A stretch of 62,504 bases of DNA from Candidatus Niyogibacteria bacterium CG10_big_fil_rev_8_21_14_0_10_46_36. GTDB taxonomy: Bacteria; Patescibacteriota; Minisyncoccia; 1-14-0-10-42-19. The notes below the pieces were generated by a model. It did no database searches. It was not told the origin of the DNA and was given only the letters and a program-made list of their open reading frames with translations. A program made the position numbers and the translations under genes. Of the stretch, positions 3,952-57,975 are shown one piece after another; within the stretch, counting starts at the first letter, position 1, and each line of letters opens with the position of its first letter. The stretch is taken from assembly GCA_002772995.1 (NCBI GenBank), contig PFCO01000003.1:74253-136756 (forward strand). Reading direction: 5' to 3'.

Positions 3952-5118
3952 TTATTGGTGTTTCAGTTCTCGTGCAATGACTTTCTTTTGCATTTCCGAA
4001 CTGCCCTCATAAATAGTCGTGCTGAATGTCTCAAATACGCGTAAAAATATCCGTATATCCTTTGTCACCGCCATGCCGCCAAGATATCTGGCTGCACGCG
4101 TCGCAACAGCATACGCAGACTCCGTTGCCTGCAATTTTGCCGCAGATGCGATTGGCGTGATCGCTATATTTCCCTCATCGCGTATTGTAGACGCACTAAG
4201 AACAGTAAACCATGCCGAAAGGAGTGACGCGTGCCATTCAGCAAAATGAAATTGAACGGATTGGTTATCCCATATAGACTTGCCGAACTGACGCCTATCT
4301 TTGGTGTATACGAGCGCTTCATCAAATATTCTTCCCGCAATGCCTAGCGCCTGAGCTCCGATATTTATCCGTCCGCCATCAAGCGTGGCCATTGCTATCT
4401 TAAATCCCTTATTCTCCTCACCCAAAAGAGCGCTTTCGGGCAGAACAACATTATCGCACACTATCTCGCAAAAATCAGAACATGCAAGAATGTGTTTCTC
4501 TATTTTGTTGACCGTAACGCCCACTATATCAGCAAAGCCAGGCGTATGGCTCTCAATAATGAATGCTGAGATATCATGCCTCCCAGAGCCGGTGCGCGCA
4601 AATAAAACACCCACGGAAGCATTGTACGCATTCGTAATGAAAATCTTAGAACCGTTCAGCACCCATCCGCGTTTTTGTTTGGTTGCACGCATCCTGAGCG
4701 ATGCCGCATCCGAGCCTGCCTCAGCTTCCGTCAAACCAAAACATCCGAGCTTTTCTCCGCTTGCAAGAAGAGGCAAAATATTCTTTTTTTGAATCTCATT
4801 CCCCGCATACATAATAGGAAACGCAGCAAGAGAACTGTTTGCGGTCCAGATCAGATGGAGCCCTCCGGATACATAGGCAATCTTGCGCGCGATAAGCGAC
4901 GCTATCTTGCTGTTGAAGCCGCTCCCACCGTATGCTTCAGGTATCGTGACGCCAAAAAGCCCGATCTTCGCCATGATAGATACAAGCGCATGAGGAAACT
5001 CTGCGCGCTCTTCAAAGCCAGCGATAACAGGCATGGCCTCATCCCGTAAAAAAGCATCTACAGTATCAGAAATATTTTTTGCTTCGGAGTCAAACATGAC
5101 GTGGTCATACCATTCCAT
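3952..5118 (-). CDS. Acyl-CoA dehydrogenase (short/branched-chain type)
   Basis: CFGLTEAEAGSDA, LNGSKIFITNA, TLDGGRINIGAQALG, IYEGSSEMQ; start moved to MEWY, which follows GGAGG. Confidence 0.92.
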   Translation of the reverse strand: MEWYDHVMFDSEAKNISDTVDAFLRDEAMPVIAGFEERAEFPHALVSIMAKIGLFGVTIPEAYGGSGFNSKIASLIARKIAYVSGGLHLIWTANSSLAAFPIMYAGNEIQKKNILPLLASGEKLGCFGLTEAEAGSDAASLRMRATKQKRGWVLNGSKIFITNAYNASVGVLFARTGSGRHDISAFIIESHTPGFADIVGVTVNKIEKHILACSDFCEIVCDNVVLPESALLGEENKGFKIAMATLDGGRINIGAQALGIAGRIFDEALVYTKDRRQFGKSIWDNQSVQFHFAEWHASLLSAWFTVLSASTIRDEGNIAITPIASAAKLQATESAYAVATRAARYLGGMAVTKDIRIFLRVFETFSTTIYEGSSEMQKKVIARELKHQ

Positions 5119-5232
5119 CAACACATACCTCCATATGTAAATTGTCAAAATCAACTCACAGTACCACAAATATACAAAAAAGAAAAGCGCTCCACTTTAC
5201 GGGAGCGCCTTAGATAACACACAAAGGAAACA

Positions 5233-8357: not shown

Positions 8358-9443
8358 ATGAGAATCGGAGACAATATAACATTCGAAAAAAAAGCGGAAT
8401 TTAGCCGGGAGCTCACGCAAAACGTAGAAGACTATTTCAAAAGAACGGGAGAGAAAAAGAGGGATCATCCGCTCATGTTCCTGAAAGCGGCATTCATGCT
8501 TGCATGGTTCGGAGGCGCGTATTATTTACTCGTTTTTACGACACATACATGGATAGAAGCAATTCTATATACCCTTCTTCTTTCGTTTGCGGCCATAGGA
8601 ATAGGATTCAATGTCCAGCATGACGCAAACCACGGAGCGCTCTCAAGCCGAAAATGGGTTAATTATATCTTTGGCTATACACTTGATATTATCGGCGGCA
8701 GCTCATTCTTTTGGAGAAAGAGCCACAATATAGCCCATCATACATATACCAACATTCAGGGAGAAGATGACGATATTGATTTTGGCATACTTGCCCGCAT
8801 GGCTCCGGATCAGCCACGACGTCGGATGCATGCGTACCAGCATATCTATCTCTGGTTTTTATATGGATTGATATTTTTTAGATGGCATTTTGACTTTAAG
8901 GCATTTAAAAGAAGTTTGTTGCCGTCTTCAAACGGAACGCACATCAATCTTATGGACCGAGTTATGTTTTGGGCAGGCAAGATAATATTTTGGAATCTTG
9001 CGTTCATTATTCCAATGCTGTATCACTCATGGTGGACTGTGCTCGCCTGCTATGCGTTCGGCATATTCAGTATAGGATTTGTAGCGGCAATTATTTTTTC
9101 GCTCGCACACTCTATGAATGAAACGGAGCACCCGCTTCCTAACCCCGAAACACTGCGCATACCAAGCGAATGGATGGTCCACCAGCTCAAAACAACAGTT
9201 AATTTCTCGCCCAACAATCCGTTTTTAACATTTTATCTCGGAGGATTAAACTACCAGGTAGAGCATCATCTGTTCCATCGGATAAGCCACATTCATTACC
9301 CGCGTATCGCGCCCATCGTAGAAAAGACATGCAAAAAATTCGGTATTCGCTACCGCGTGAATAAAACATTCTGGAGCGCAATACACTCTCATTACCTATT
9401 CTTAAAACGAATGGGACAATCTCGGCATATGACATCGCATTAA
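8358..9443 (+). CDS. Membrane-bound acyl-CoA fatty acid desaturase (delta5/delta6-like family)
   Basis: Three His boxes HDANHG, HNIAHHTYTN, QVEHHLF; GGLNYQ; TM helices; AGGAG before ATG. Confidence 0.92.
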   Translation: MRIGDNITFEKKAEFSRELTQNVEDYFKRTGEKKRDHPLMFLKAAFMLAWFGGAYYLLVFTTHTWIEAILYTLLLSFAAIGIGFNVQHDANHGALSSRKWVNYIFGYTLDIIGGSSFFWRKSHNIAHHTYTNIQGEDDDIDFGILARMAPDQPRRRMHAYQHIYLWFLYGLIFFRWHFDFKAFKRSLLPSSNGTHINLMDRVMFWAGKIIFWNLAFIIPMLYHSWWTVLACYAFGIFSIGFVAAIIFSLAHSMNETEHPLPNPETLRIPSEWMVHQLKTTVNFSPNNPFLTFYLGGLNYQVEHHLFHRISHIHYPRIAPIVEKTCKKFGIRYRVNKTFWSAIHSHYLFLKRMGQSRHMTSH

Positions 9444-16267: not shown

Positions 16268-16282
16268 AATAAAAATCAAATG

Positions 16283-16354
16283 CTCCGCAGGCAGGATTCG
16301 AACCTGCGACCAACGCGTTAACAGCGCGCTGCTCTACCACTGAGCTACTGCGGA
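16283..16354 (-). tRNA. tRNA-Asn(GTT), CCA not fully encoded
   Basis: TCCGCAG/CTGCGGA acceptor, CTGTTAA loop, GGTTCGAATCC, G73. Confidence 0.97.
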
Positions 16355-16425
16355 ATATTCATTTAATCTAGCATCTTTCTGTCCCTCCTTCAATAGAAAA
16401 TCCCCGGTAATACGGGGATGTTTGT

Positions 16426-17388
16426 TTATTCTGGTTTTTCTGAAAAATCGGGCATAAGACCGCATATCTTCATGGCGCGTATAAGCCGGTTAAGGCCGAT
16501 GCCGCCGCCGCATCGCATAAAAAAGTTGAACGAAAGGAATTCTTCCAGTTCCTGGCGGGTTGCCTGTTTCCCAAAACGCCGCTCAAGTTCAGACGCGTAC
16601 AAGCCGTCTTTAATGCTGTTAAAACGCCTCCGCATATCATCACTATCCGTAGAGCGCTCCGCGGATCCTATTGCTTCCATGCCGCACAAGATAACATCTA
16701 TTTTTCTTGCAGTGTTGGTACTCCATTTCCGCTTCATATTCCAAAACGGACTTGTAAATTCGGGGAAATCCGTAAGAAAACAGACCTCGCCGAATAAATC
16801 CCGGAGCTTTTCTTCATGACGGCTTTCTATTTCGTGCCCTTCGTGCAAACGAAGGATAGTCGCAGCGTCGCTATACTCTATCGCGGGGTATTCTTCCTTA
16901 TGCCTATATGCATCATGTTTAGGAAATCCTAAAAACTCGAGCAGGTCTTTGAGCATGCTATGCAATACTTCCATATCGCCATGCGTCTCAAATTCAAACA
17001 TCTGGAACACAAGATCGTGCCTCCCCGCTTCTCTCCGTTGGGGCGGCTCATCCCGATAACTTGTCGTTATACAGCAGCACCCCGTCATAGTCGGGTCTGC
17101 AAGAAGTTCGTACTCAAGCCACATCTGCCCGGTTTGGGGTAACGGTAAGATGCGCGCGCCGAAATCATATTTCATGACATTGAACACATCTTCGCATGCG
17201 GCAAGTATAGATTGCCTTTGCTGCGTCGGCACAAGCACAAACCCTAATTCATCACAGAAAAACCCGAGAAGCTTCTTAATGACATAATCGTATTCGTACT
17301 TGTTCATGAAGCTTACTTCTGACTTTTCACGAATACGCTTTGCGACAGCTTTATTATGCGCCAGCTCTTCCTGGGTCATACAGCTCAT
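16426..17388 (-). CDS. Class IIb aminoacyl-tRNA-synthetase-like protein, catalytic domain only (AsnRS2/asparagine synthetase A-like)
   Basis: Motif 2-like SYRDEP...RHDLVFQMFEFE; EAIGSAER; motif 3 GGGIGLNRL; no N-terminal OB-fold anticodon domain. Confidence 0.8.
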   Translation of the reverse strand: MSCMTQEELAHNKAVAKRIREKSEVSFMNKYEYDYVIKKLLGFFCDELGFVLVPTQQRQSILAACEDVFNVMKYDFGARILPLPQTGQMWLEYELLADPTMTGCCCITTSYRDEPPQRREAGRHDLVFQMFEFETHGDMEVLHSMLKDLLEFLGFPKHDAYRHKEEYPAIEYSDAATILRLHEGHEIESRHEEKLRDLFGEVCFLTDFPEFTSPFWNMKRKWSTNTARKIDVILCGMEAIGSAERSTDSDDMRRRFNSIKDGLYASELERRFGKQATRQELEEFLSFNFFMRCGGGIGLNRLIRAMKICGLMPDFSEKPE

Positions 17389-17432
17389 TACACCCCCCTT
17401 TTGTATTTTTTAAAAATCTATACCACGCCCTA

Positions 17433-17696
17433 CTATACTACAGCTCCCTCTTTTTTCAACAGTGCACGCTTTTTTTGTTCACCACGGTTGTACCCGCCGG
17501 TATCTCCGTCGGAGCGTATAACTCGATGACATGGAATGGCAGGGTCACCATTCTTGTGCAGGATATTTCCTACCGCGCGATACGCGCGGGGACTCCCCGC
17601 AAGACGCGCTACTTCCTTATATGTCCGCACCTCTCCTTTGGGAATGCGCGCAACTGCTTTGTACACTCGTTCTGAAAATGACTGCATATTTACCAT
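17433..17696 (-). CDS. MGMT-family O6-alkylguanine-DNA alkyltransferase, single domain
   Basis: RAVGNIL, IPCHRV with active-site Cys. Confidence 0.9.
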   Translation of the reverse strand: MVNMQSFSERVYKAVARIPKGEVRTYKEVARLAGSPRAYRAVGNILHKNGDPAIPCHRVIRSDGDTGGYNRGEQKKRALLKKEGAVV

Positions 17697-18270: not shown

Positions 18271-19893
18271 TTATCGGTACATGATGTCCGTATATTCTTT
18301 AAGCATCCGGTCTGCAGTCCAATGCTTTTCCATTTCTTGTTTTGCGGCAAGCGCCTTGTTATACCAGCGGAACTGATTGCCATAGAATAACGGCATGATC
18401 TTTTTATCAAAACACGTGTAGAGTTCGTGCGCATCAAACGCATCTTGGTCGGAATCTTGAACGCCGTTGGAGCCAAACAAAAACGCATTTTCGGGATCTG
18501 CTTCAAGCATCCAGCCGTCAGGCGTAGAACAATTAACAGCGCCGACCATTGCGGCAGACATGCCCGAAGTACCGCATGCCTCATAGGGAGCACGGGGGGT
18601 ATTCAACCATACATCCGCGCCCGCTTTAAGCGTTCTATTCATCTCCATATCAAACCCAGGAAGGATAACGAGATTTGCAAACGACTTGCTCATAGCATAA
18701 ATGCTGTTCCATTCATCAACCATCGCTTTGTCGTCGGGGTGCGGCTTGCCCGCATATACGAGCTGCATCCTTCCTAAAGCAATTGCTGAGCGCAGCCAAT
18801 CAATATTGTAAAAGATAAGCTTCGGCCGCTTGTATTCTGCAAACCGCCTTGCCCACACGACAATCATGTGTTCCCGGTGAAGCGTTTTCCCCGATATACC
18901 CTCTACCAGATCAATAAGCGTTTTTCTGTGCTGGCGTTTTGCCTGCATAAGCTCATGGGGGGTCCGTGCATTGTGAAAATCAGCATATTGCCAAAAATCC
19001 TGAGAAGCACCGTTTGTTATTGAGATAATCGGCTTTTGGGGAGGACTCTTCACAAATCGTCCCACAAGCATCCGCGCTTTTTTTAGATGTTTTTTGGATA
19101 CCGCATTCGTATGTCCCGCGAGATACACGCCCGCGCCAGTCATGGAGAATTCCTCTTCATCTCCGCCAACCTCTACCAGCATATCCCGGTCATACCCGCT
19201 CAGATACGCAACCCTGTCTATAGGATAACGGGGATTACCGGCATCAACCGGCGTATGCGTAGTAAAGCGAACCATATCTCGGACAGACGCAAGCGCTCCC
19301 CGCCTACCTTCCCGCAGAAATTTTTGGAAGTAGTCTACTGCCGCAAACGAGCAGTGCGATTCATTGATATGCAGCGTCTGCACTTCTAATTGTAAGTGCT
19401 CAATGAGCGCTACCGTTGCCTTGCCTATCAGGAGCGACTGGGATATTTTTCTGTCCAAGTTTGCGCCGCGCGAAAAACTTCCTCCGTATAAATGAAGTGT
19501 ATTTAAACGGGATAAGTCATCGTTTTCAGGAATATCAGCATCAAAGAAATATATCTCCGAAAAACCAAATTTTCCGCGACGAAGCCGATGCACTTGCACA
19601 AATACCGGAGAACCACAAATCTCTATCCGCAACCGAATACCGGTGTTCTCAAGCATGTGCGGATAATGCCGGGGTGTATACGAAACCGTCATACCAAGCT
19701 CCAGATCCAATCCCTGATCGTAATATCCTTCACGCGGAAGAATGGTGAACCCGACAAGCGGAATGCCTCTTTTGTACGCAGCATTCAAAACTGCCCCGCT
19801 AAATACCCCGAGACCCCCGGCAACCGTATGCAATTCTGGACACACGAACACCTCCGGCGTCACGAAAGCGATTATCTTGTTGTGTTTACTCAT
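18271..19893 (-). CDS. glgP: Short alpha-glucan phosphorylase-family (GT35) protein; PLP lysine replaced by Ser
   Basis: AGGLGV, HINESH, FTTHTP, ARRFAEYKRP, AGKPHP, EACGTSGMSAA. Confidence 0.85.
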   Translation of the reverse strand: MSKHNKIIAFVTPEVFVCPELHTVAGGLGVFSGAVLNAAYKRGIPLVGFTILPREGYYDQGLDLELGMTVSYTPRHYPHMLENTGIRLRIEICGSPVFVQVHRLRRGKFGFSEIYFFDADIPENDDLSRLNTLHLYGGSFSRGANLDRKISQSLLIGKATVALIEHLQLEVQTLHINESHCSFAAVDYFQKFLREGRRGALASVRDMVRFTTHTPVDAGNPRYPIDRVAYLSGYDRDMLVEVGGDEEEFSMTGAGVYLAGHTNAVSKKHLKKARMLVGRFVKSPPQKPIISITNGASQDFWQYADFHNARTPHELMQAKRQHRKTLIDLVEGISGKTLHREHMIVVWARRFAEYKRPKLIFYNIDWLRSAIALGRMQLVYAGKPHPDDKAMVDEWNSIYAMSKSFANLVILPGFDMEMNRTLKAGADVWLNTPRAPYEACGTSGMSAAMVGAVNCSTPDGWMLEADPENAFLFGSNGVQDSDQDAFDAHELYTCFDKKIMPLFYGNQFRWYNKALAAKQEMEKHWTADRMLKEYTDIMYR

Positions 19894-21754: not shown

Positions 21755-21831
21755 TGGGGTGACCGATGGGGCTTGAACCCACAACCACCAGGTCCACAAC
21801 CTGGTGCTCTACCAATTGAGCTACGGTCACC
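21755..21831 (-). tRNA. tRNA-His(GTG) with encoded G-1 and CCA
   Basis: GGTGACCG...TTGTGGA...GGTTCAAGCCC...CGGTCACCCCA; G-1:C73. Confidence 0.97.
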
Positions 21832-21908: not shown

Positions 21909-23282
21909 TTATAATGGTTTAAAATCCGCATAAAAATGACGGAGTCCGGGTGCTTCTTCGGTGCTAAACCCGCGCATGCTATCTTTCTTACGTAGCAAAC
22001 GTTCAAATACACATGCAATATAATCAAACGCTATTCGTTTGTATTTACGGCGCGGTATCGCAAGGCGCACCCATTCATATTGCGCAGCGTCCCCAAACAT
22101 AACCGACCCTATCTCACAACTCCGTATACCGCCTTCAAAATAAAGCGCAACCTCCAAAGCTTTCCCTGGAAATTGCTCTTTCGAGATATGGGGCAACATT
22201 GCCGCCGCATCAACATAGACCGCATGTCCACCGGGAGGACAAAGCACCGGCACGCCTATCTTTTTCAGTTTCGCATGAAGATATGCGGTATCTGCTACGC
22301 GTTTTCTCAGATATGACGGCTTCACAACCTCTTTGAGACCTCGAGCAACTGTTTCCATCGTAGCGCCCGTCATACCGGCATAATGCCTAAACCCGTATGT
22401 CCGCAAAAGAAAGCCCATCGTAATATTGGACAACTCTTCAAAGAGATCATCGTGGTCCGTAACAATAAATCCGCCTCCGTTTGCAAGTCCATCCTTCTTT
22501 GCGCTCATATACGCGATATCTGCGTACCCGAACAGTAATCGCACCACATCTTTATAGGAAAAACCCGGCATCTCTTCCCGTTGTACGAAATAGGCATTTT
22601 CAACAATACGGCACGCATCAATAATAAGCAATTTATTGTACTGCTCCGCAAGAATTTTTGTTCTTAAAACATTTTGGAACGAAACAGGCTGCCCGCCACC
22701 GGTATTGTTGGTGAGCGTAAGCAGAATTGCCTTTGCCTGTTTGCCTTTTTCGGACCCGAGATACTCTTCCAGTTTCTGCAGATCGATATCTCCCTTGAAC
22801 GGTGTATTGCTTTCGATATCAAGTGATTTTGGCGTCGGGATATTGATGCATCGCGCGCCCGCATGTTCAAAGTTCGCGCGAGTCGTATCAAAAAATCCAT
22901 TTGAAAGTAAAATATCATTTTCCCGCACCCTTCCTGTTTCTTTGAGAAAATGCGCGATGAGGGATTCCGCCCCTCTCCCCTGATGAACAGGAAGCACATG
23001 CGAAAACCCACTAAACTCTTTTGCTGCCCGTTCAAGCTTTTCATAGCTTGCCGCGTACGCATACGCCTCATCGGCACGATTCTGTAGTTCCATCTGTTGA
23101 TGAGAGAGCTCCCCTGTCCCAGAATCAGTCAACAAATCAACTGTTACCATGCGCGAAGGAATATTGAATAGATTATAGCGCGCCTGTTTCAAAATACGAC
23201 CCCGTTTTTTCCTTGGCATGAATACGGTCTTTTTATGGGGATTTTTCTCAAATGACTTATTCCAATATTTCGTTATCTTCAT
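21909..23282 (-). CDS. tnaA: Tryptophanase (PLP beta-eliminating lyase)
   Basis: VDLLTDSGT, DEAY, HQGRGAE, MSAKKDG; EIG and LRHF rather than the tyrosine phenol-lyase ERG/LRFF. Confidence 0.85.
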   Translation of the reverse strand: MKITKYWNKSFEKNPHKKTVFMPRKKRGRILKQARYNLFNIPSRMVTVDLLTDSGTGELSHQQMELQNRADEAYAYAASYEKLERAAKEFSGFSHVLPVHQGRGAESLIAHFLKETGRVRENDILLSNGFFDTTRANFEHAGARCINIPTPKSLDIESNTPFKGDIDLQKLEEYLGSEKGKQAKAILLTLTNNTGGGQPVSFQNVLRTKILAEQYNKLLIIDACRIVENAYFVQREEMPGFSYKDVVRLLFGYADIAYMSAKKDGLANGGGFIVTDHDDLFEELSNITMGFLLRTYGFRHYAGMTGATMETVARGLKEVVKPSYLRKRVADTAYLHAKLKKIGVPVLCPPGGHAVYVDAAAMLPHISKEQFPGKALEVALYFEGGIRSCEIGSVMFGDAAQYEWVRLAIPRRKYKRIAFDYIACVFERLLRKKDSMRGFSTEEAPGLRHFYADFKPL

Positions 23283-23351
23283 TCCAAGCCTCGTTTTCAA
23301 AAAGCATGTTACTTGCCCAGCATAATACCAAAAAACAGCTGAGATGTCAAA

Positions 23352-23423
23352 ATAAACGGCTCACACCAGGGTGTGAGCCGTTTATGAAAACAAAAAGCCA
23401 CCTCCGGAGAGGTGGCTCGTTTT
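23352..23423. terminator. Two back-to-back GC hairpins between the gamma-lyase gene and tnaA
   Basis: TAAACGGCTCACACC-A-GGGTGTGAGCCGTTTA followed by AGCCACCTC-CGGA-GAGGTGGCT. Confidence 0.7.
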
Positions 23424-23425
23424 TC

Positions 23426-24613
23426 TTACAGATCGCTTAATGCATCTGCAAAATCGTCTTTTATATCTTCTATATCCTCAATTCCAATCGTAAGCCGGAT
23501 AAGCGTGGGCGAAAGACCAAATTCTTGCATTTCTTCCTCGGTGCACGCAACATGCACCATCCCCGCATCAAACTCACCGCGCGTATTGGTAAAGCCGAGC
23601 GAAACAGAAATGTCGAATGTTCTACTCTCTGCAGCAAGGGTGTCAAGGAATTTTTTTGCATCTTCCGGCGTATGCATATCTATAGATATCATCCCGCCAT
23701 ATCCCGTGTTGTTATCCATATGGGTACGCGCGAGGTCGCGATGGACGAACGTATCCAGGCCGGGATAGTGCACCCTCTTTATCTTTGGCTGGTCCACAAG
23801 CCATCTCGCAAGTATAAACGCATTCAGGCCTTGTTTTTTGAGCCGTATATCAAATGTTTTGCACGACCGAAAAACAAGCGAAGCAACGTCAGGGCTCATA
23901 CATGCGCCGTACCTGTGATACTGCTCAATAAAAAGGTTGATATGTTTTTCTTCTCCGATAATTGCTCCCGCAATGACGTCGCCGTGCCCGGAGATAAATT
24001 TTGTAACCGAATGTATGACGAGATGGGCGCCGTGCTCAAGCGGACGGAAATAATACGGTGAGCCGAAAGAATTATCTACCACAAAAAGAATGTTTGTGCC
24101 CGCGATAAGCTTTCCTATCCCGATAACATCTGCCATGGCAAGCGTCGGGTTGGCGAGAAACTCAACAAAGACAACCTTCGTCTTGCGCGTTATTGCTTTT
24201 TTGACTTCTGCGACAGAAGAAGCGTCGACGAATTTCACCTTCATGCCCCACAAAGGAATATCCTTTTCGAACACTTCAATCGTAGTCATGTAGAGCGGTT
24301 TTGAGACTAGTATCTCATCTCCCCTCTTTAAAAATCCGGAGGCAACCAAGCCTGCGAACATCTGCAAAATTGCCGCCATGCCGGATGCGAATGTCAGACA
24401 GTTCTTATATGAGTACGCTTCGGGTTCTTTTATGTATCTGAACTCCAGATGCGCAAGCTCTTCCTCAAGAGCCCGCACAGTGGGATTCCCATGCGCCCAA
24501 CGGCTGTAAACAAAATTGTCATTCTCTCCTGTCATTGATTTTCTGGCACTGTCCACACTATTGAAAGTAAACGCTGCGTCGCGCACTATAGGCGCCGACT
24601 TTTTGTTTTTCAT
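23426..24613 (-). CDS. Cys/Met metabolism PLP enzyme (methionine gamma-lyase/cystathionine gamma-lyase-like)
   Basis: [54 protein letters not shown]. Confidence 0.88.
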
Positions 24614-24735
24614 CTCTAGCACTCCTACACTGCTATGGTAGTTTTTCAAAGTATAAATCGTGGCTATTGTACCACTATAGTCGCAAAAAATCAAGCAAAC
24701 AAAAAAGACGGATCAATGTCCGTCTTTTCTAATTT

Positions 24736-26175
24736 TTATGGGAAAATGCCTTGGTCAAGATAGCACTGCCCTATCTTAGTGATCGCCAAAAAGTATGCCG
24801 CCGTACGCAAATCTATTGTGTCGGAGTATTCTTTCTGTATGACGCGCATCTGTTCAAATGCGGGGATCATCGTTCCTTCAAGGCCGGAAATAACGAGGTC
24901 TTCTTCCGTTGAAAGCCGAGTGACATGTTCTATTCTATTCGGGTCTATTTTTGTATGCGTCTGCTCTTCAACGACAGCCAAAATATTCTGAAGCCGCGCC
25001 TTATCAAAACGCCTGTCTATCTGTCCGAATCCGATATGATTACGGTTCTTAAGCCACTCAAAATATGACACGATAACGCCGCCGGCGTTCAGAAAAATAT
25101 CTGGAACAATCATTGCTCCTTTGCTGAATAATATATCATTTGCGTAAGAACTGGTCGGTCCGTTTGCCGCCTCCCCCACAATCTTTGCTCGTATCTTGTC
25201 CGCATTGAGATGCGTTATCTGGTTTTCAAGCGCTGCGGGAATTAGTATGTCGCAATCAAGCTCAAGGATATCCGAGATGCGCCGTACATTTTTCGTTCCA
25301 GGGAATCCCTTCAGTGTGCCGTGTTCTATGCGGAAGAGCATTGCATCATCAAGCGGAATACCTTTTGCCGAATGAATCGCGCCATCAATCTCGCCCAGCC
25401 CAATAATAATCGCGCCGTTTGCTTCTAAAAACTTTGCTGTATGATACCCGACATTCCCGAGCCCCTGAACAATCACTCGCTTGCCCTCAAGCCCGCAGGA
25501 AAGCCCGAGACGGCCCATAATATCCGGCTGGCTGCACACCTCGCGAAGACCGATAAACACGCCCCTGCCGGTCGCGGACACGCGCTCGCGAAGCCCTCCG
25601 ATAGATATCGGCTTCCCCGTAACGCACGCTGAAGGATTCGGGTCATCATCCGAAGCAAACTGCTTGTAGGTATCGAATATCCATGCCATTTCTTGCGAAC
25701 CGGTCCCATAGTCAGGCGCGGGGACGTCTTTTTCGGAATGAAACACTTTGTGGATATGCGTAAACGTATATGTATAGCGGCGTATGATTCGTTCTATTTC
25801 TGACGGAGAAAAATCTTTTTTGCTTCGTATGCGTATCGTCCCTTTTGCTCCGCCAAATGGCACATCGGCGAGTGCGCACTTGTATGTCATGAGCGCAGCA
25901 AGCGCGACTACTTCATTCTCATCCTGAGCGTCTTCTATCCACCGAAAATTAATACCCCCCTTGGTAGGAAGCTTGTGATAACTATGCCGCGCACGATACG
26001 CATCTATGTTCATAATGCTGCCGTCATCTCGTTTAACGGGCATACTCTCGTGGATAAAGCTGTTACATCGCTTAATCTGCCGCAAAAGACCCGGCTGATC
26101 TTTTTCAAATCTGGTCAGCTCAGCTGCCTTATCAAAGTAGCGGTTTACTTCTTCAAAAAACTTGTAATCGGACAT
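24736..26175 (-). CDS. gdhA: NAD(P)-dependent glutamate dehydrogenase, animal-like type with antenna-like insertion
   Basis: PTKGG, MTYKCA, PFGGAKG, DVPAPD, VTGKP, ATGRG, QGLGNVG, EAANGP, LNAGGVIVSYFEW. Confidence 0.92.
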   Translation of the reverse strand: MSDYKFFEEVNRYFDKAAELTRFEKDQPGLLRQIKRCNSFIHESMPVKRDDGSIMNIDAYRARHSYHKLPTKGGINFRWIEDAQDENEVVALAALMTYKCALADVPFGGAKGTIRIRSKKDFSPSEIERIIRRYTYTFTHIHKVFHSEKDVPAPDYGTGSQEMAWIFDTYKQFASDDDPNPSACVTGKPISIGGLRERVSATGRGVFIGLREVCSQPDIMGRLGLSCGLEGKRVIVQGLGNVGYHTAKFLEANGAIIIGLGEIDGAIHSAKGIPLDDAMLFRIEHGTLKGFPGTKNVRRISDILELDCDILIPAALENQITHLNADKIRAKIVGEAANGPTSSYANDILFSKGAMIVPDIFLNAGGVIVSYFEWLKNRNHIGFGQIDRRFDKARLQNILAVVEEQTHTKIDPNRIEHVTRLSTEEDLVISGLEGTMIPAFEQMRVIQKEYSDTIDLRTAAYFLAITKIGQCYLDQGIFP

Positions 26176-55656: not shown

Positions 55657-57975
55657 TCAATTAGAATCTGATTCGGATGTTATTTTTTCAGGCATCGTCC
55701 TGCCTTCGTCAGGATCAATATCTATTTCACAGGTACCGCTGACGCACGCAAGCTCTTTTGCGCCGGTGGTGTTGTCCTCTTTTTCATACGCAACAATTTG
55801 TGAAAAATCAATCTTCGGCATTTTTCCCATAAGCTCGTGGTACTTTTCTGCGCTTATTGCTTCATACGGCGCCAATTGGTACGCGTGCTCTGACTTTGGC
55901 AAGAATGAAAGGCCGCCCAAGATATCCCAGCGCTTGTAAAGCCAATTTGCGGTTTCTATCCATTCGTCGTGTCCCACAGAAACAGTCACTGAAGGATTGT
56001 GTTCGGTGAAACTACTCTTTACCATCTCCCAATGCTTCAATTGATCAAGCGCACTCAGGTTTATGATTGCTTTTTCTGGAGCTTTTACCGGAAATTCGAG
56101 AACGAATGTCGTTGCGGAATTGTCATGTTGTCCCACTTCAGGATAATAGGGAAATTTCTGGTCCTTCAACATATGAAAGAGCGGGTCAGTCGCTGAAATG
56201 CGCACGCGCCGGATATAATATTTTGCGTGCCTCGTATGCATCCCCGAAGAAGCATCAACAAGCTGCGAAACGGTCCCTGACGGCTTGACGCATGTAACAC
56301 AGGTTGAGGGATTGATACCAAGCCGACGCGCATACATCTCATTCGTTCGTACAGCGATCTCCTTCATGCGTTCGAGCGTTTCGGGGTTGCGCACCGCAGG
56401 AGCATCCCATTGCCCAGTGATGGAAACACCGAGCAAGCGTTCTTCTGCACAATTCTCTTTCCATTCCTTTGAGAGAAACGGGAAATGAGTCAAAGATGAC
56501 TGGTATGTTCCGAGCATAGCGGCGAGACGCGCTTTACGGAAAAGCGAATCTTGCGTATCTTCTTCCCGCGCGACAACCTCCGACAAGTTACAAAACTGTT
56601 TTGAACGGAGCACAATCTCTCCGCACGGATTTGTCCCACATGTAGCGCTATGCGGCTTGAATACCTTCCATCGCCGTGCAGGCAATTGTCTTTTAAGACT
56701 TCCCCGGTTGAAAATACCGCGCTCCCCTGTTCCTGATTGTGCGAGCGCTAACCACTCCTGCATAAATTCGGTTGCGGTTGGACGCTCGTTGTATACTGCG
56801 GAGTTATTCGCCATAGAACGCTGGGGTTCTGTGAGATAAAATTGCCCAGTTTTTGCATGGCGCATCTCTTTGTCATCCAAATCAGAAAGCGAAATCAAAG
56901 CGCTCCGCCGGACACCTCCCATAACAACGACTTCTCCGGTCTTACAAATCACATCGTGAATATCAAGATTTGAAAGCCGCCGGCCCTGGCGTGCGAGTAT
57001 CTTTGAGCGGGAAAAATCCAAAAGGGCACGCAACGGCTCCGGCCCCGAACTTCGTCCTCCCATAGTGGAAAGACGCGCGCCCGCAGGACGAAGCTGTGAA
57101 TAATCAAAAGCGATATCTTTCCCTGCATACCATGTCTTGAGTCCAAGCGTTAATGCTTCGGCCCATCCCTCTTTGCTGTCCCCAACAACATGTGTAGGAA
57201 GCTTTTCTCCGTGTTGGCGCCTTACAATGGGGAGCTGCTGAACCGTTTGTGATTCAACGGAATACCCGACACCCGTTCCGCACATCAGAAGATACATAAT
57301 CTCTGCAAAATCTTCAATCTTTGACGGAGCAATAAACGAGCAGTTGTATGCTGTTGCATTCGTCTTCCGAGCAGCTTCGCCGGCGCTCCATAAAAGACGC
57401 ATGGACGGCATCACCTCTTGTTTTAATATTGCAGTTCGCAATTCCTGGTATTCTTGATCAGTAAACGCATCCTTAATGTTCTCACGCATAAAATTAATAT
57501 AACGATCAACCGTTTCTATCCATGTTTCGCGCCTTCCCTCATCTTCAATCCAGCGTGAGTATGTCCGATAATAAATAAATTCTGCAAGCGGATTTCTGAA
57601 ATACGTTTTACTATCTTGCGCAAGCTTTTGAATGTGCTCGGGAATCGTTTTCTTTTTTTCACGGATATGCGCGCGTTCACTTCGGTATAAAATATATGCC
57701 TTTGCAGTCTTTGGAAAATCCAAAAGGATGAGGCTTTCTTCTACTATGTCTTGTATCGCCTCAATTGAGGGAACACCGCCGCGAGGATACCGCGCCGCTA
57801 AGCGCTGAATAACGCGGTCGGTAATACGAAAAGAATCGCGCTGAGGGTTTCCCTCACCGCTTGCTTGCATCGCACGAGAAATCGCGCTACTAATTCTATT
57901 TTTGTCAAAAGGAACAACCCGACCATCGCGCTTTCGCACGGATTGGACCAAAAAAGAGGATGCGTGAGACACCAT
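55657..57975 (-). CDS. nrdJ: Class II (adenosylcobalamin-dependent) ribonucleotide reductase, monomeric RTPR type, with N-terminal ATP cone
   Basis: ATP cone VRKRDG..VPFD; RTYSRW; AYNCSF; GGVRRSA; TNPCGEI; CNLSEV; TCVKPSGTVS; C-terminal CVSGTC. Confidence 0.93.
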   Translation of the reverse strand: MVSHASSFLVQSVRKRDGRVVPFDKNRISSAISRAMQASGEGNPQRDSFRITDRVIQRLAARYPRGGVPSIEAIQDIVEESLILLDFPKTAKAYILYRSERAHIREKKKTIPEHIQKLAQDSKTYFRNPLAEFIYYRTYSRWIEDEGRRETWIETVDRYINFMRENIKDAFTDQEYQELRTAILKQEVMPSMRLLWSAGEAARKTNATAYNCSFIAPSKIEDFAEIMYLLMCGTGVGYSVESQTVQQLPIVRRQHGEKLPTHVVGDSKEGWAEALTLGLKTWYAGKDIAFDYSQLRPAGARLSTMGGRSSGPEPLRALLDFSRSKILARQGRRLSNLDIHDVICKTGEVVVMGGVRRSALISLSDLDDKEMRHAKTGQFYLTEPQRSMANNSAVYNERPTATEFMQEWLALAQSGTGERGIFNRGSLKRQLPARRWKVFKPHSATCGTNPCGEIVLRSKQFCNLSEVVAREEDTQDSLFRKARLAAMLGTYQSSLTHFPFLSKEWKENCAEERLLGVSITGQWDAPAVRNPETLERMKEIAVRTNEMYARRLGINPSTCVTCVKPSGTVSQLVDASSGMHTRHAKYYIRRVRISATDPLFHMLKDQKFPYYPEVGQHDNSATTFVLEFPVKAPEKAIINLSALDQLKHWEMVKSSFTEHNPSVTVSVGHDEWIETANWLYKRWDILGGLSFLPKSEHAYQLAPYEAISAEKYHELMGKMPKIDFSQIVAYEKEDNTTGAKELACVSGTCEIDIDPDEGRTMPEKITSESDSN

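Follow-up and report, generated by a model that had tools for sequence, protein, structure and literature searches.

A gene for a 320-residue protein resembling the catalytic core of an aminoacyl-tRNA synthetase (aaRS) lies directly upstream of a tRNA-Asn gene in a 62,504-nucleotide (nt) stretch of Candidatus Niyogibacteria bacterium CG10_big_fil_rev_8_21_14_0_10_46_36 (contig PFCO01000003.1, positions 74,253 to 136,756). This whole stretch is referred to as the window. The gene is genuine and intact, and it belongs to a large family, here called X, which profile comparisons place closer to asparaginyl-tRNA synthetase (AsnRS) and archaeal-type aspartyl-tRNA synthetase (AspRS) than to the asparagine synthetases AsnA and AS-AR or to EpmA. 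In cells and giant viruses, X is linked to the pyrimidine genes PyrD, PyrE and PyrF by neighbourhood and by gene fusion; in phages, it is tightly tied to a dedicated tRNA(GUU). As a tentative explanation, well short of a probable one, X would activate asparagine (Asn), work with the acceptor end of tRNA-Asn and feed dihydroorotate to PyrD, PyrE and PyrF.

The gene and the promoter-like site preceding it are located as follows.

16426..17388, minus strand: coding sequence, 320 residues, stand-alone class IIb aaRS catalytic core, family X member (open reading frame, Pfam, alignment and structure model).
17432..17459, minus strand: promoter-like site TTGAAA-16 nt-TATAGT, 5' of the coding sequence and overlapping the end of an MGMT-like gene (10/12 match; consensus match only).

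The protein is matched by Pfam tRNA-synt_2 (PF00152, the class II D/K/N core) over residues 44-306, at E=3.6e-17, and both class II motifs are intact (motif 2, SYRDE...GRHDLVFQMFEFE; motif 3, GGGIGLNRLIR). The AlphaFold model, obtained with 22 homologs as input, has a predicted local distance difference test (pLDDT) score of 88 and a predicted template modelling (pTM) score of 0.86; it shows a class II catalytic core with a single N-terminal helix before it and contains neither an OB fold nor an anticodon-binding domain, the homologs being 276-320 residues long. Reading frame, Pfam match and model agree in this respect with an original prediction, made from the DNA letters, of a 320-residue protein with motifs 2 and 3 and without an OB fold. 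The start at ATG 17388 is supported by a Shine-Dalgarno-like AAGGGGGG run (GGGGGG), 5 nt before it, and by the 10/12 promoter-like site upstream. An alternative start at 17307 (M28), producing 293 residues, is used in one database gene call, and a look-up of that call found no record. The possibility of a pseudogene or chance reading frame was rejected, because both the conservation and the confident model speak against it. That the product is an active enzyme of the family, as the explanation given above would have it, is possible and just as tentative.

When the window protein was compared with NCBIfam models, all scores were far under the respective cut-offs: 30 bits for non-discriminating AspRS (cut-off 353), 27.4 bits for the asnS model TIGR00457 (342.6), 16 bits for LysRS (468) and 15.1 bits for the archaeal asparagine synthetase A model NF005055 (389); no EpmA model was matched. 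The AsnA Pfam family did not match at E<=1, tRNA-synt_2 being the sole Pfam match at that level. The top PDB matches of the structure model, found by Foldseek, are the catalytic domains of AsnRS and of archaeal/eukaryotic AspRS (E about 1e-16, TM score about 0.67). Likewise, with the profile of family X, AsnRS structures are matched at E values between 1.6e-9 and 3.6e-6, archaeal AspRS at 3.9e-6, and the AS-AR structure 3p8t no better than at E=0.023, along about 100 residues. Similarity to LysRS is marginal, at 0.005-0.3 for models and structures (0.05 or weaker for structures on the family profile). On these scores, X therefore forms a family of its own, with AsnRS and archaeal-type AspRS as its nearest relatives, and the placement that the prediction had left to be made against AsnA, the truncated paralog AsnRS2 and EpmA falls outside all three. 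A search of the window and of all loci with the X profile, possibly too specific for the purpose, found only X and no canonical class IIb paralog (AsnRS, AspRS or LysRS); asnS, gatCAB and asnB are not among the about 30 open reading frames examined in the window.

Members of the family were collected by a word-indexed search over protein clusters at 90% identity. At least 7,733 clusters, among 8,000 candidates scored, match at E<=1e-3, and nearly all are 276-335 residues long. They carry no label, or go under 'aspartyl/asparaginyl-tRNA synthetase' or under the NCBI name of the family X proteins, 'amino acid--tRNA ligase-related protein'. An exhaustive search of 50%-identity representatives produced 525 matches, 334 of them at 1e-10 or better. 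The window protein is 45-55% identical to members, the nearest not exceeding 55%, and in a neighbour-joining tree it stands on a long branch within a Patescibacteria clade.

The distribution of X is patchy and accessory: in a set of one genome per species (185,579 species genomes), at least 402 stretches encode it. Bacterial carriers are found among Patescibacteria (many of them Saccharibacteria), Dependentiae, Chlamydiota, Rickettsiales, other Alpha- and Gammaproteobacteria, Bacteroidota and Pasteurellaceae, archaeal carriers among Nanoarchaeota and Woesearchaeota. At least 568 further stretches are viral (IMG/VR) and come from phages and from giant-virus metagenome-assembled genomes (MAGs); the best viral structure match of the window protein is a Pithovirus homolog. 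Cultured carriers are three huge phages and the Prochlorococcus phages P-SSM2, P-SSM5 and P-SSM7, whose copies are annotated as 'tRNA ligase'. Horizontal transfer has distributed X over cellular lineages (Patescibacteria, DPANN archaea, intracellular bacteria, some Bacteroidota and Pasteurellaceae) and over viruses (giant viruses and marine phages).

In 155 distinct X proteins drawn from all sources, conservation reaches 95% or more at about 80 positions, which include the motifs RLSILAACED, PLPQTGQMWLE, TSYRxE...GRH..F.MFEFE, FP..TSPFWNM, K.DV..G.E.IGSAER and R.GGGIG..R. The window protein retains nearly all of these invariants; its departures, Q for L in RLSIL and A for T before IGSAER, read as lying at less conserved positions. 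No phage-specific residue switch was found in the 155 proteins, and no position separates the phage clade. The simplest reading is, therefore, that the family would carry a single biochemical activity in all contexts.

To analyze the linkage to pyrimidine genes, neighbours from 80 genomic loci were clustered and then checked with hidden Markov models (HMMs); 79 of these loci are cellular, and one (L037) is a viral contig. PyrD, PyrE and/or PyrF lie within 6 kb of X in 20 of the 79 cellular loci, for an estimated chance expectation of about 2-3%, and the association extends over six or more clades of the X tree. This link had not been anticipated in the original prediction. Gene order differs from group to group. 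Operons of the type X-PyrF'-miniPRTase-PyrD', where PRTase stands for phosphoribosyltransferase, occur in Alphaproteobacteria, Rickettsiales and Pasteurellaceae; in loci L024 and L055 PyrF' begins 2-3 nt past X, with a canonical pyrD divergent upstream. The arrangement is X-PyrE-PyrF in Gammaproteobacteria, a PyrE-PyrF fusion with PyrD and X in Bacteroidota, and Dus-PyrE-PyrD-x-(cytosine-deaminase-like amidohydrolase)-ArgH-X in one candidate phyla radiation (CPR) subclade. In one of the closest relatives of the window protein (L315, 53% identity) the order is AlaX-like, PyrF, PyrD, PyrE-like, X. Direct fusions are also found: PyrD-X in five 90%-identity clusters (P0125, P0289, P0296, P0298, P0300), one of which, P0296, is on giant-virus-like contigs and adjoins a thymidine kinase, and a single X-PyrF fusion, with PyrE and PyrD adjacent. 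X sits in the genomic position expected of an enzyme supplying dihydroorotate to PyrD.

A signature search for aspartate transcarbamoylase (ATCase) over the window and the first 169 loci found none; the sole ATCase-like neighbour, without the canonical STRTR, is a divergent gene directly upstream of X in L313/L314, from the one syntenic relative of the window that was seen, whose X protein is 53% identical to that of the window and among its closest relatives. No recognised dihydroorotase was present in any X neighbourhood examined, the sole amidohydrolase being the cytosine-deaminase-like protein of one CPR subclade. The ATCase-like protein (L313 2726-3757; L314 484-1515) has 343 residues and scores 180 bits with TIGR00670 (cut-off 237); it carries SLRTT for STRTR and HPLPH for HPLPR, its gene is absent from the window, and a genome scan for its relatives gave only distant matches in Clostridia. 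In a Patescibacteria subclade (L002/L081, L003, L021, L025, L077), an ArgH equivalog (324 bits) and a PRK06886-family cytosine-deaminase-like amidohydrolase precede X, with PyrE and PyrD upstream in some of these loci.

A very short PRTase-like protein (125-159 residues), weakly similar to orotate phosphoribosyltransferase, accompanies X in bacteria and phages (L061, 7514-7918; L064, L024, L055, L058; L088, L089, L107, L116, L145, L152, L160). From its sequence, it may be a minimal orotate phosphoribosyltransferase. In phage loci L088, L107, L145 and L152, X occurs together with the special tRNA described below and with the mini-PRTase or a PyrD-like gene; L152 combines all four. Among cultured phages with X, none was found to have the mini-PRTase or PyrF'.

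In many phage contigs, including P-SSM7 and P-SSM2, ARAGORN identified an odd 'tRNA-Asn' of 77-102 nt directly 3' of X, on the same strand and mostly within about 10 nt (up to about 370 nt). Alignment of 26 distinct copies gives a cloverleaf in which 18 of 23 pairs show compensatory changes. U1:A72, G73 and the anticodon G34-U35-U36 are invariant, U33 is conserved and CCA is usually encoded. The D-arm resembles that of tRNA-Tyr/Leu, and the variable arm ranges between 5 and 30 nt and is long in most copies. Any of the four bases (U, C, G, A) occurs at position 37, although a pyrimidine is usual there, an uncommon feature in a tRNA used for decoding. A covariance model of the special tRNA revealed it after X in 11 more phage loci, missed by ARAGORN, with scores of 77-94 bits, and found none of this type in giant-virus or cellular X loci. 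All together, the tRNA follows X in 40 of 42 distinct phage-clade X genes, as well as in one phage X of another clade (L092).

The association was also tested in the opposite direction, by scanning a DNA pattern derived from the tRNA alone over all viral contigs, where at least 118 matches were obtained. Among the 118 listed, 103 are immediately preceded by X on the same strand, the distance from the end of its reading frame being mostly 7-13 nt; 10 lie at contig edges and five have room for X yet lack it, so that X is present in 103 of the 108 testable matches among those listed. The same pattern gave 21 matches in cellular genomes (596 Gb), two of which carry X, one of them being a viral contig. 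A few tRNA(GUU) genes with the same D-arm and anticodon pattern, and without X directly upstream, were seen in MAG and viral contigs (L288, L289, L298, L299, L306, L202, L244, L249, L281, L283); those that were parsed keep U1:A72 and G73.

Some further features of the phage loci were recorded. In the P-SSM2 record (AY939844.2) the tRNA-Asn PSSM2_199 is annotated at 164094-164179, in a part of the coding sequence PSSM2_205 that does not resemble a tRNA; ARAGORN places the tRNA 9 nt after PSSM2_198 (L084 6810-6897, about 162082-162169), as the order of the locus tags implies. The annotated position was therefore rejected, its coordinates looking shifted by about 2 kb. Phage contigs with X and the special tRNA also encode a transfer-messenger RNA nearby (L133/L136 1018-1382; L155 4897-5242; L156 2109-2490). 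One protein of 614 residues (P0304) has the X domain fused to a GIY-YIG and NUMOD3 homing-endonuclease module, a fusion which hints that the phage cassette, with or without the tRNA, may move by homing.

The active site of X was read from an HMM alignment to Brugia AsnRS, set against the known motifs of class IIb enzymes and of AspRS. LxQxxQxxLE is common to X (LPQTGQMWLE) and to Brugia AsnRS; AspRS has Lys-Gln in place of this Leu-Glu, and its Lys binds the carboxylate of aspartate (Asp). FEFE corresponds to the ExE of motif 2 of AsnRS, with Glu replacing the Asp of AspRS, and the Arg of motif 2 is kept. GSAER retains the GSxR Arg, which holds the side chain, the D...GxE metal ligands are retained, and AACED, aligned with VEGGS, keeps the Glu of the flipping loop that binds the free alpha-amine. 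Since the pocket is AsnRS-like, X would most likely form asparaginyl-adenylate from Asn and ATP. Invariants of X not shared with AsnRS and AspRS are C65, C106, PFWNM, R58, K229 and R292, the last replacing a His conserved before motif 3 in AspRS and AsnRS; they could reflect a different or larger substrate.

The region between the window gene and the tRNA contains the following elements.

16392..16419, minus strand: intrinsic-terminator-like hairpin and tail, TTTCTATT, beginning 6 nt past the stop codon (terminator scan and centroid fold).
16365..16393, minus strand: hexamers weakly resembling a promoter, TTGAAG-17 nt-TAGATT, which stop 10 nt short of the tRNA (putative, picked by eye).
16282..16354, minus strand: tRNA-Asn(GUU), ordinary, 73 nt, with U1:A72 and G73, not of the phage type (ARAGORN and covariance model).

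ARAGORN bears out the predicted tRNA-Asn, on the same strand and 71 nt after the gene; the predicted feature was correct at its gene end, 17388, and one position off at the other, 16283 against a tRNA end at 16282. The absence of a clear terminator, also claimed, did not hold. The hairpin ATCCCCG-TATTAC-CGGGGAT (16419..16400 on the gene strand; 7 bp, 5 of them G-C, with a 6-nt loop) was found by scan and is the centroid fold of the spacer. The hexamers match the consensus at 4+4 of 12 positions and are therefore below the scanner threshold of 9/12. Given a terminator-like hairpin and promoter-like hexamers in the spacer, gene and tRNA look like separate transcription units. The tRNA scores 47 bits on the phage covariance model, against 77-94 bits for true members: unlike the phage module, the window has an ordinary tRNA-Asn, 71 nt from the gene and past a terminator.

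Synteny with tRNA-Asn, which had been put forward as a check, was not found in other cellular genomes: in the 79 cellular loci not one tRNA-Asn lies within 6 kb of X, and L037, first taken as a bacterial case of linkage, was rejected as a viral contig (the same as L140). In L313/L314 a tRNA-Asn lies about 1 kb downstream of X, past an oppositely oriented VanY gene. The adjacency in the window therefore reflects gene order at the level of the lineage. A single adjacent case in about 80 genomes, with about one tRNA-Asn per small genome, is not significant alone, and the case had been selected for adjacency; it is consistent with functional coupling, of which it is no proof, and it becomes suggestive solely in light of the phage data. 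The proposal of an activity directed at tRNA-Asn itself accordingly finds nothing in cellular synteny (0/79), but gains strong and unforeseen support from the phage members, which nearly always have a dedicated tRNA(GUU) after them.

Four things have to be accounted for: a core of AsnRS type that depends on ATP, one conserved activity, the coupling to PyrD, PyrE and PyrF, and the coupling to a tRNA with tRNA-Asn identity elements. In the explanation proposed at the outset, X would adenylate Asn with ATP in its AsnRS-like pocket and, having no anticodon-binding domain, would recognise tRNA-Asn by the acceptor end (U1:A72, G73). The activated Asn, as adenylate or tRNA ester, would be the entry to L-dihydroorotate, so that PyrD, followed by PyrE and PyrF, would be supplied with no need for carbamoyl-phosphate synthetase, ATCase or dihydroorotase. 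Dihydroorotate formally equals asparagine plus CO2 minus water, and aminoacyl adenylates and esters react with CO2 to give N-carboxyanhydrides; a possible chemistry would be the joining of CO2 to the free alpha-amine, closure of the N-carboxyanhydride and attack of the side-chain amide on C2. In its complete form, with X and tRNA-Asn as a new ATP-dependent, tRNA-assisted route from Asn and CO2 to dihydroorotate, and with the poorly decoding phage tRNA(GUU) as a cofactor or carrier, the proposal is unlikely. We infer the role of the phage tRNA from its linkage to X.

Several observations weigh against this explanation. For conversion of Asn to dihydroorotate we know of no chemical precedent. 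Within the window, no pyr gene was found and a terminator stands between gene and tRNA; elsewhere, the cellular loci are devoid of tRNA-Asn linkage, and giant-virus X members have neither tRNA type nearby. Since GUU is invariant and X has no anticodon-binding domain, some other factor (the ribosome, the host AsnRS or Tgt) must select the anticodon. The invariant basic residues R292, R58 and K229 could indicate a more anionic substrate, such as N-carbamoyl-aspartate, and the ATCase-like neighbour in L313 fits this alternative better.

The alternative in question is that X would replace PyrC as an ATP-dependent dihydroorotate synthetase, adenylating the beta-carboxylate of N-carbamoyl-L-aspartate so that the ureido nitrogen closes the ring, with no catalytic role for a tRNA. 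It is rather unlikely, yet accounts for the pyr neighbourhoods, which contain PyrD, PyrE and PyrF, once an ATCase-like gene and never a recognised PyrC; the PyrD-X fusions suggest consecutive steps, and the extra invariant Arg and Lys would suit a dicarboxylate substrate. X stands in the position expected of PyrC, but has an unrelated fold, and it would need ATP and work irreversibly, with Asn or carbamoyl-aspartate as candidate substrates. Activation of a beta-carboxyl on the class II aaRS fold has precedents in AsnA and AS-AR (PMC9437257). The similarity of X to both is, however, weak or absent, the ATCase-like neighbour is limited to one organism, with none in about 170 other loci, and the reciprocal coupling of X and tRNA(GUU) in phages, of about 95%, is left unexplained.

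That same coupling would be accounted for if X were a minimal translational AsnRS, charging tRNA-Asn via the acceptor stem for phages, giant viruses and symbionts lacking AsnRS, with phages bringing the cognate tRNA. In E. coli the identity elements of tRNA-Asn are GUU and G73, and U1:A72 is typical of bacterial tRNA-Asn; the phage tRNA has all three. The pocket and the closest homology are those of AsnRS, and the window gene adjoins a tRNA-Asn. The PyrD-X and X-PyrF fusions and the pyr operons are not explained in this way, and the lack of an anticodon-binding domain, the pyrimidine usually found at position 37 and the patchy distribution of the family (about 400 matches in 185,579 species genomes) are difficult to reconcile with a translational enzyme, a role that is quite unlikely.

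An asparagine synthetase similar to AsnA or AS-AR, producing Asn from Asp, NH4+ and ATP and thereby raising the supply for tRNA-Asn charging, is improbable. Many hosts and viruses carrying X probably have AT-rich genomes and Asn-rich proteomes, the fold and the domain loss are as in AsnA and AS-AR, and tRNA-Asn is coupled to X in phages and in the window. Homology does not support this local supply of Asn, which the original prediction had offered as one of two readings: AsnA is not matched, the AS-AR model gives 15 against 389 bits and 3p8t is scarcely reached. Moreover, the Lys by which AspRS binds the Asp carboxylate is Leu in X, and the pyrimidine link would have no explanation. A tRNA modifier similar to GluQRS (YadB), whose target for attachment of an amino acid would be the wobble base (queuosine) in tRNA-Asn instead of the 3' end, is very improbable. 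The missing anticodon-binding domain and the conserved U33-G34-U35-U36 with a variable position 37 would fit it, but the conserved U1:A72, G73 and encoded CCA point to the acceptor end, no queuosine genes were seen in X neighbourhoods and the pyr linkage is unexplained.

With AsnRS, X shares the catalytic fold, the motif 2 and 3 arginines, the metal-binding Asp/Glu, the type of pocket, and the best profile and structure matches; it differs in the missing N-terminal OB fold, the Arg for His before motif 3, its own invariants and its patchy distribution. AsnA and AS-AR are likewise stand-alone class II cores of about 290-330 residues without a tRNA-binding domain, and ATP-dependent activation of an Asp- or Asn-type substrate is presumed for X as well; there is no significant sequence relationship beyond the fold, and, unlike X, neither enzyme has, to our knowledge, a link to a tRNA or to PyrD, PyrE and PyrF. 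EpmA (PoxA/GenX), derived from LysRS, modifies EF-P, and GluQRS belongs to class I; as in X, an aaRS core lost anticodon reading and acquired a dedicated macromolecular partner, but X is only marginally LysRS-like and no EF-P or queuosine context was seen. The use of Glu-tRNA in haem synthesis and of tRNA-Gly in the staphylococcal cell wall offers a likeness in the specialised, atypical tRNA co-inherited with one enzyme; we know of no dedicated-tRNA system for tRNA-Asn or for nucleotide synthesis.

In the literature searched, no description was found of family X, of a long-arm phage tRNA-Asn or of an aaRS-like enzyme in pyrimidine synthesis, and the associations at the level of the family appear to be undescribed there. 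The only entry in Sullivan et al. 2010 (PMC3037559) is a 'tRNA ligase' (T4-GC 194), present in 2 of the 16 cyanophage genomes compared. Within the known class of stand-alone aaRS-like proteins, the window gene belongs to an uncharacterised variant, in a family of more than 7,700 clusters at 90% identity annotated so far only as 'tRNA ligase' or 'aaRS-related'. If X feeds PyrD, PyrE and PyrF, it would be a new entry to pyrimidine synthesis and would explain the making of uridine monophosphate (UMP) in some Patescibacteria, intracellular bacteria, giant viruses and phages, those with late pyr genes only; with the Asn route, viruses and genome-reduced symbionts would have a four-enzyme path to UMP. 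If X is a minimal AsnRS, a core of about 280 residues and an acceptor stem would suffice for specific charging, and the phage pairs would be naturally orthogonal synthetase/tRNA pairs. In either case, one protein family is paired near-obligately with one unusual tRNA over hundreds of marine phage contigs, and this pairing is directly testable with the cultured Prochlorococcus phages P-SSM2 and P-SSM7.

Other features of the window are listed below.

3952-5169, minus strand: acyl-CoA dehydrogenase.
8358-9443, plus strand: fatty-acid desaturase.
18271-19893, minus strand: glycogen-phosphorylase-like protein.
21755-21830: tRNA-His.
21909-26175, minus strand: a run of beta-eliminating lyase, Cys/Met pyridoxal-phosphate enzyme and glutamate dehydrogenase.
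55657-57975, minus strand: B12-type ribonucleotide reductase.

The amino-acid-degrading enzymes had been suggested as a nearby source of ammonia; they are 4.5-9 kb from the X gene and nothing ties them to it functionally. Both lyase genes and the tRNA-His are found in the same order in L313. With the other four proteins listed, the encoded metabolism is comparatively rich, given that the X gene of this genome falls among those of Patescibacteria.

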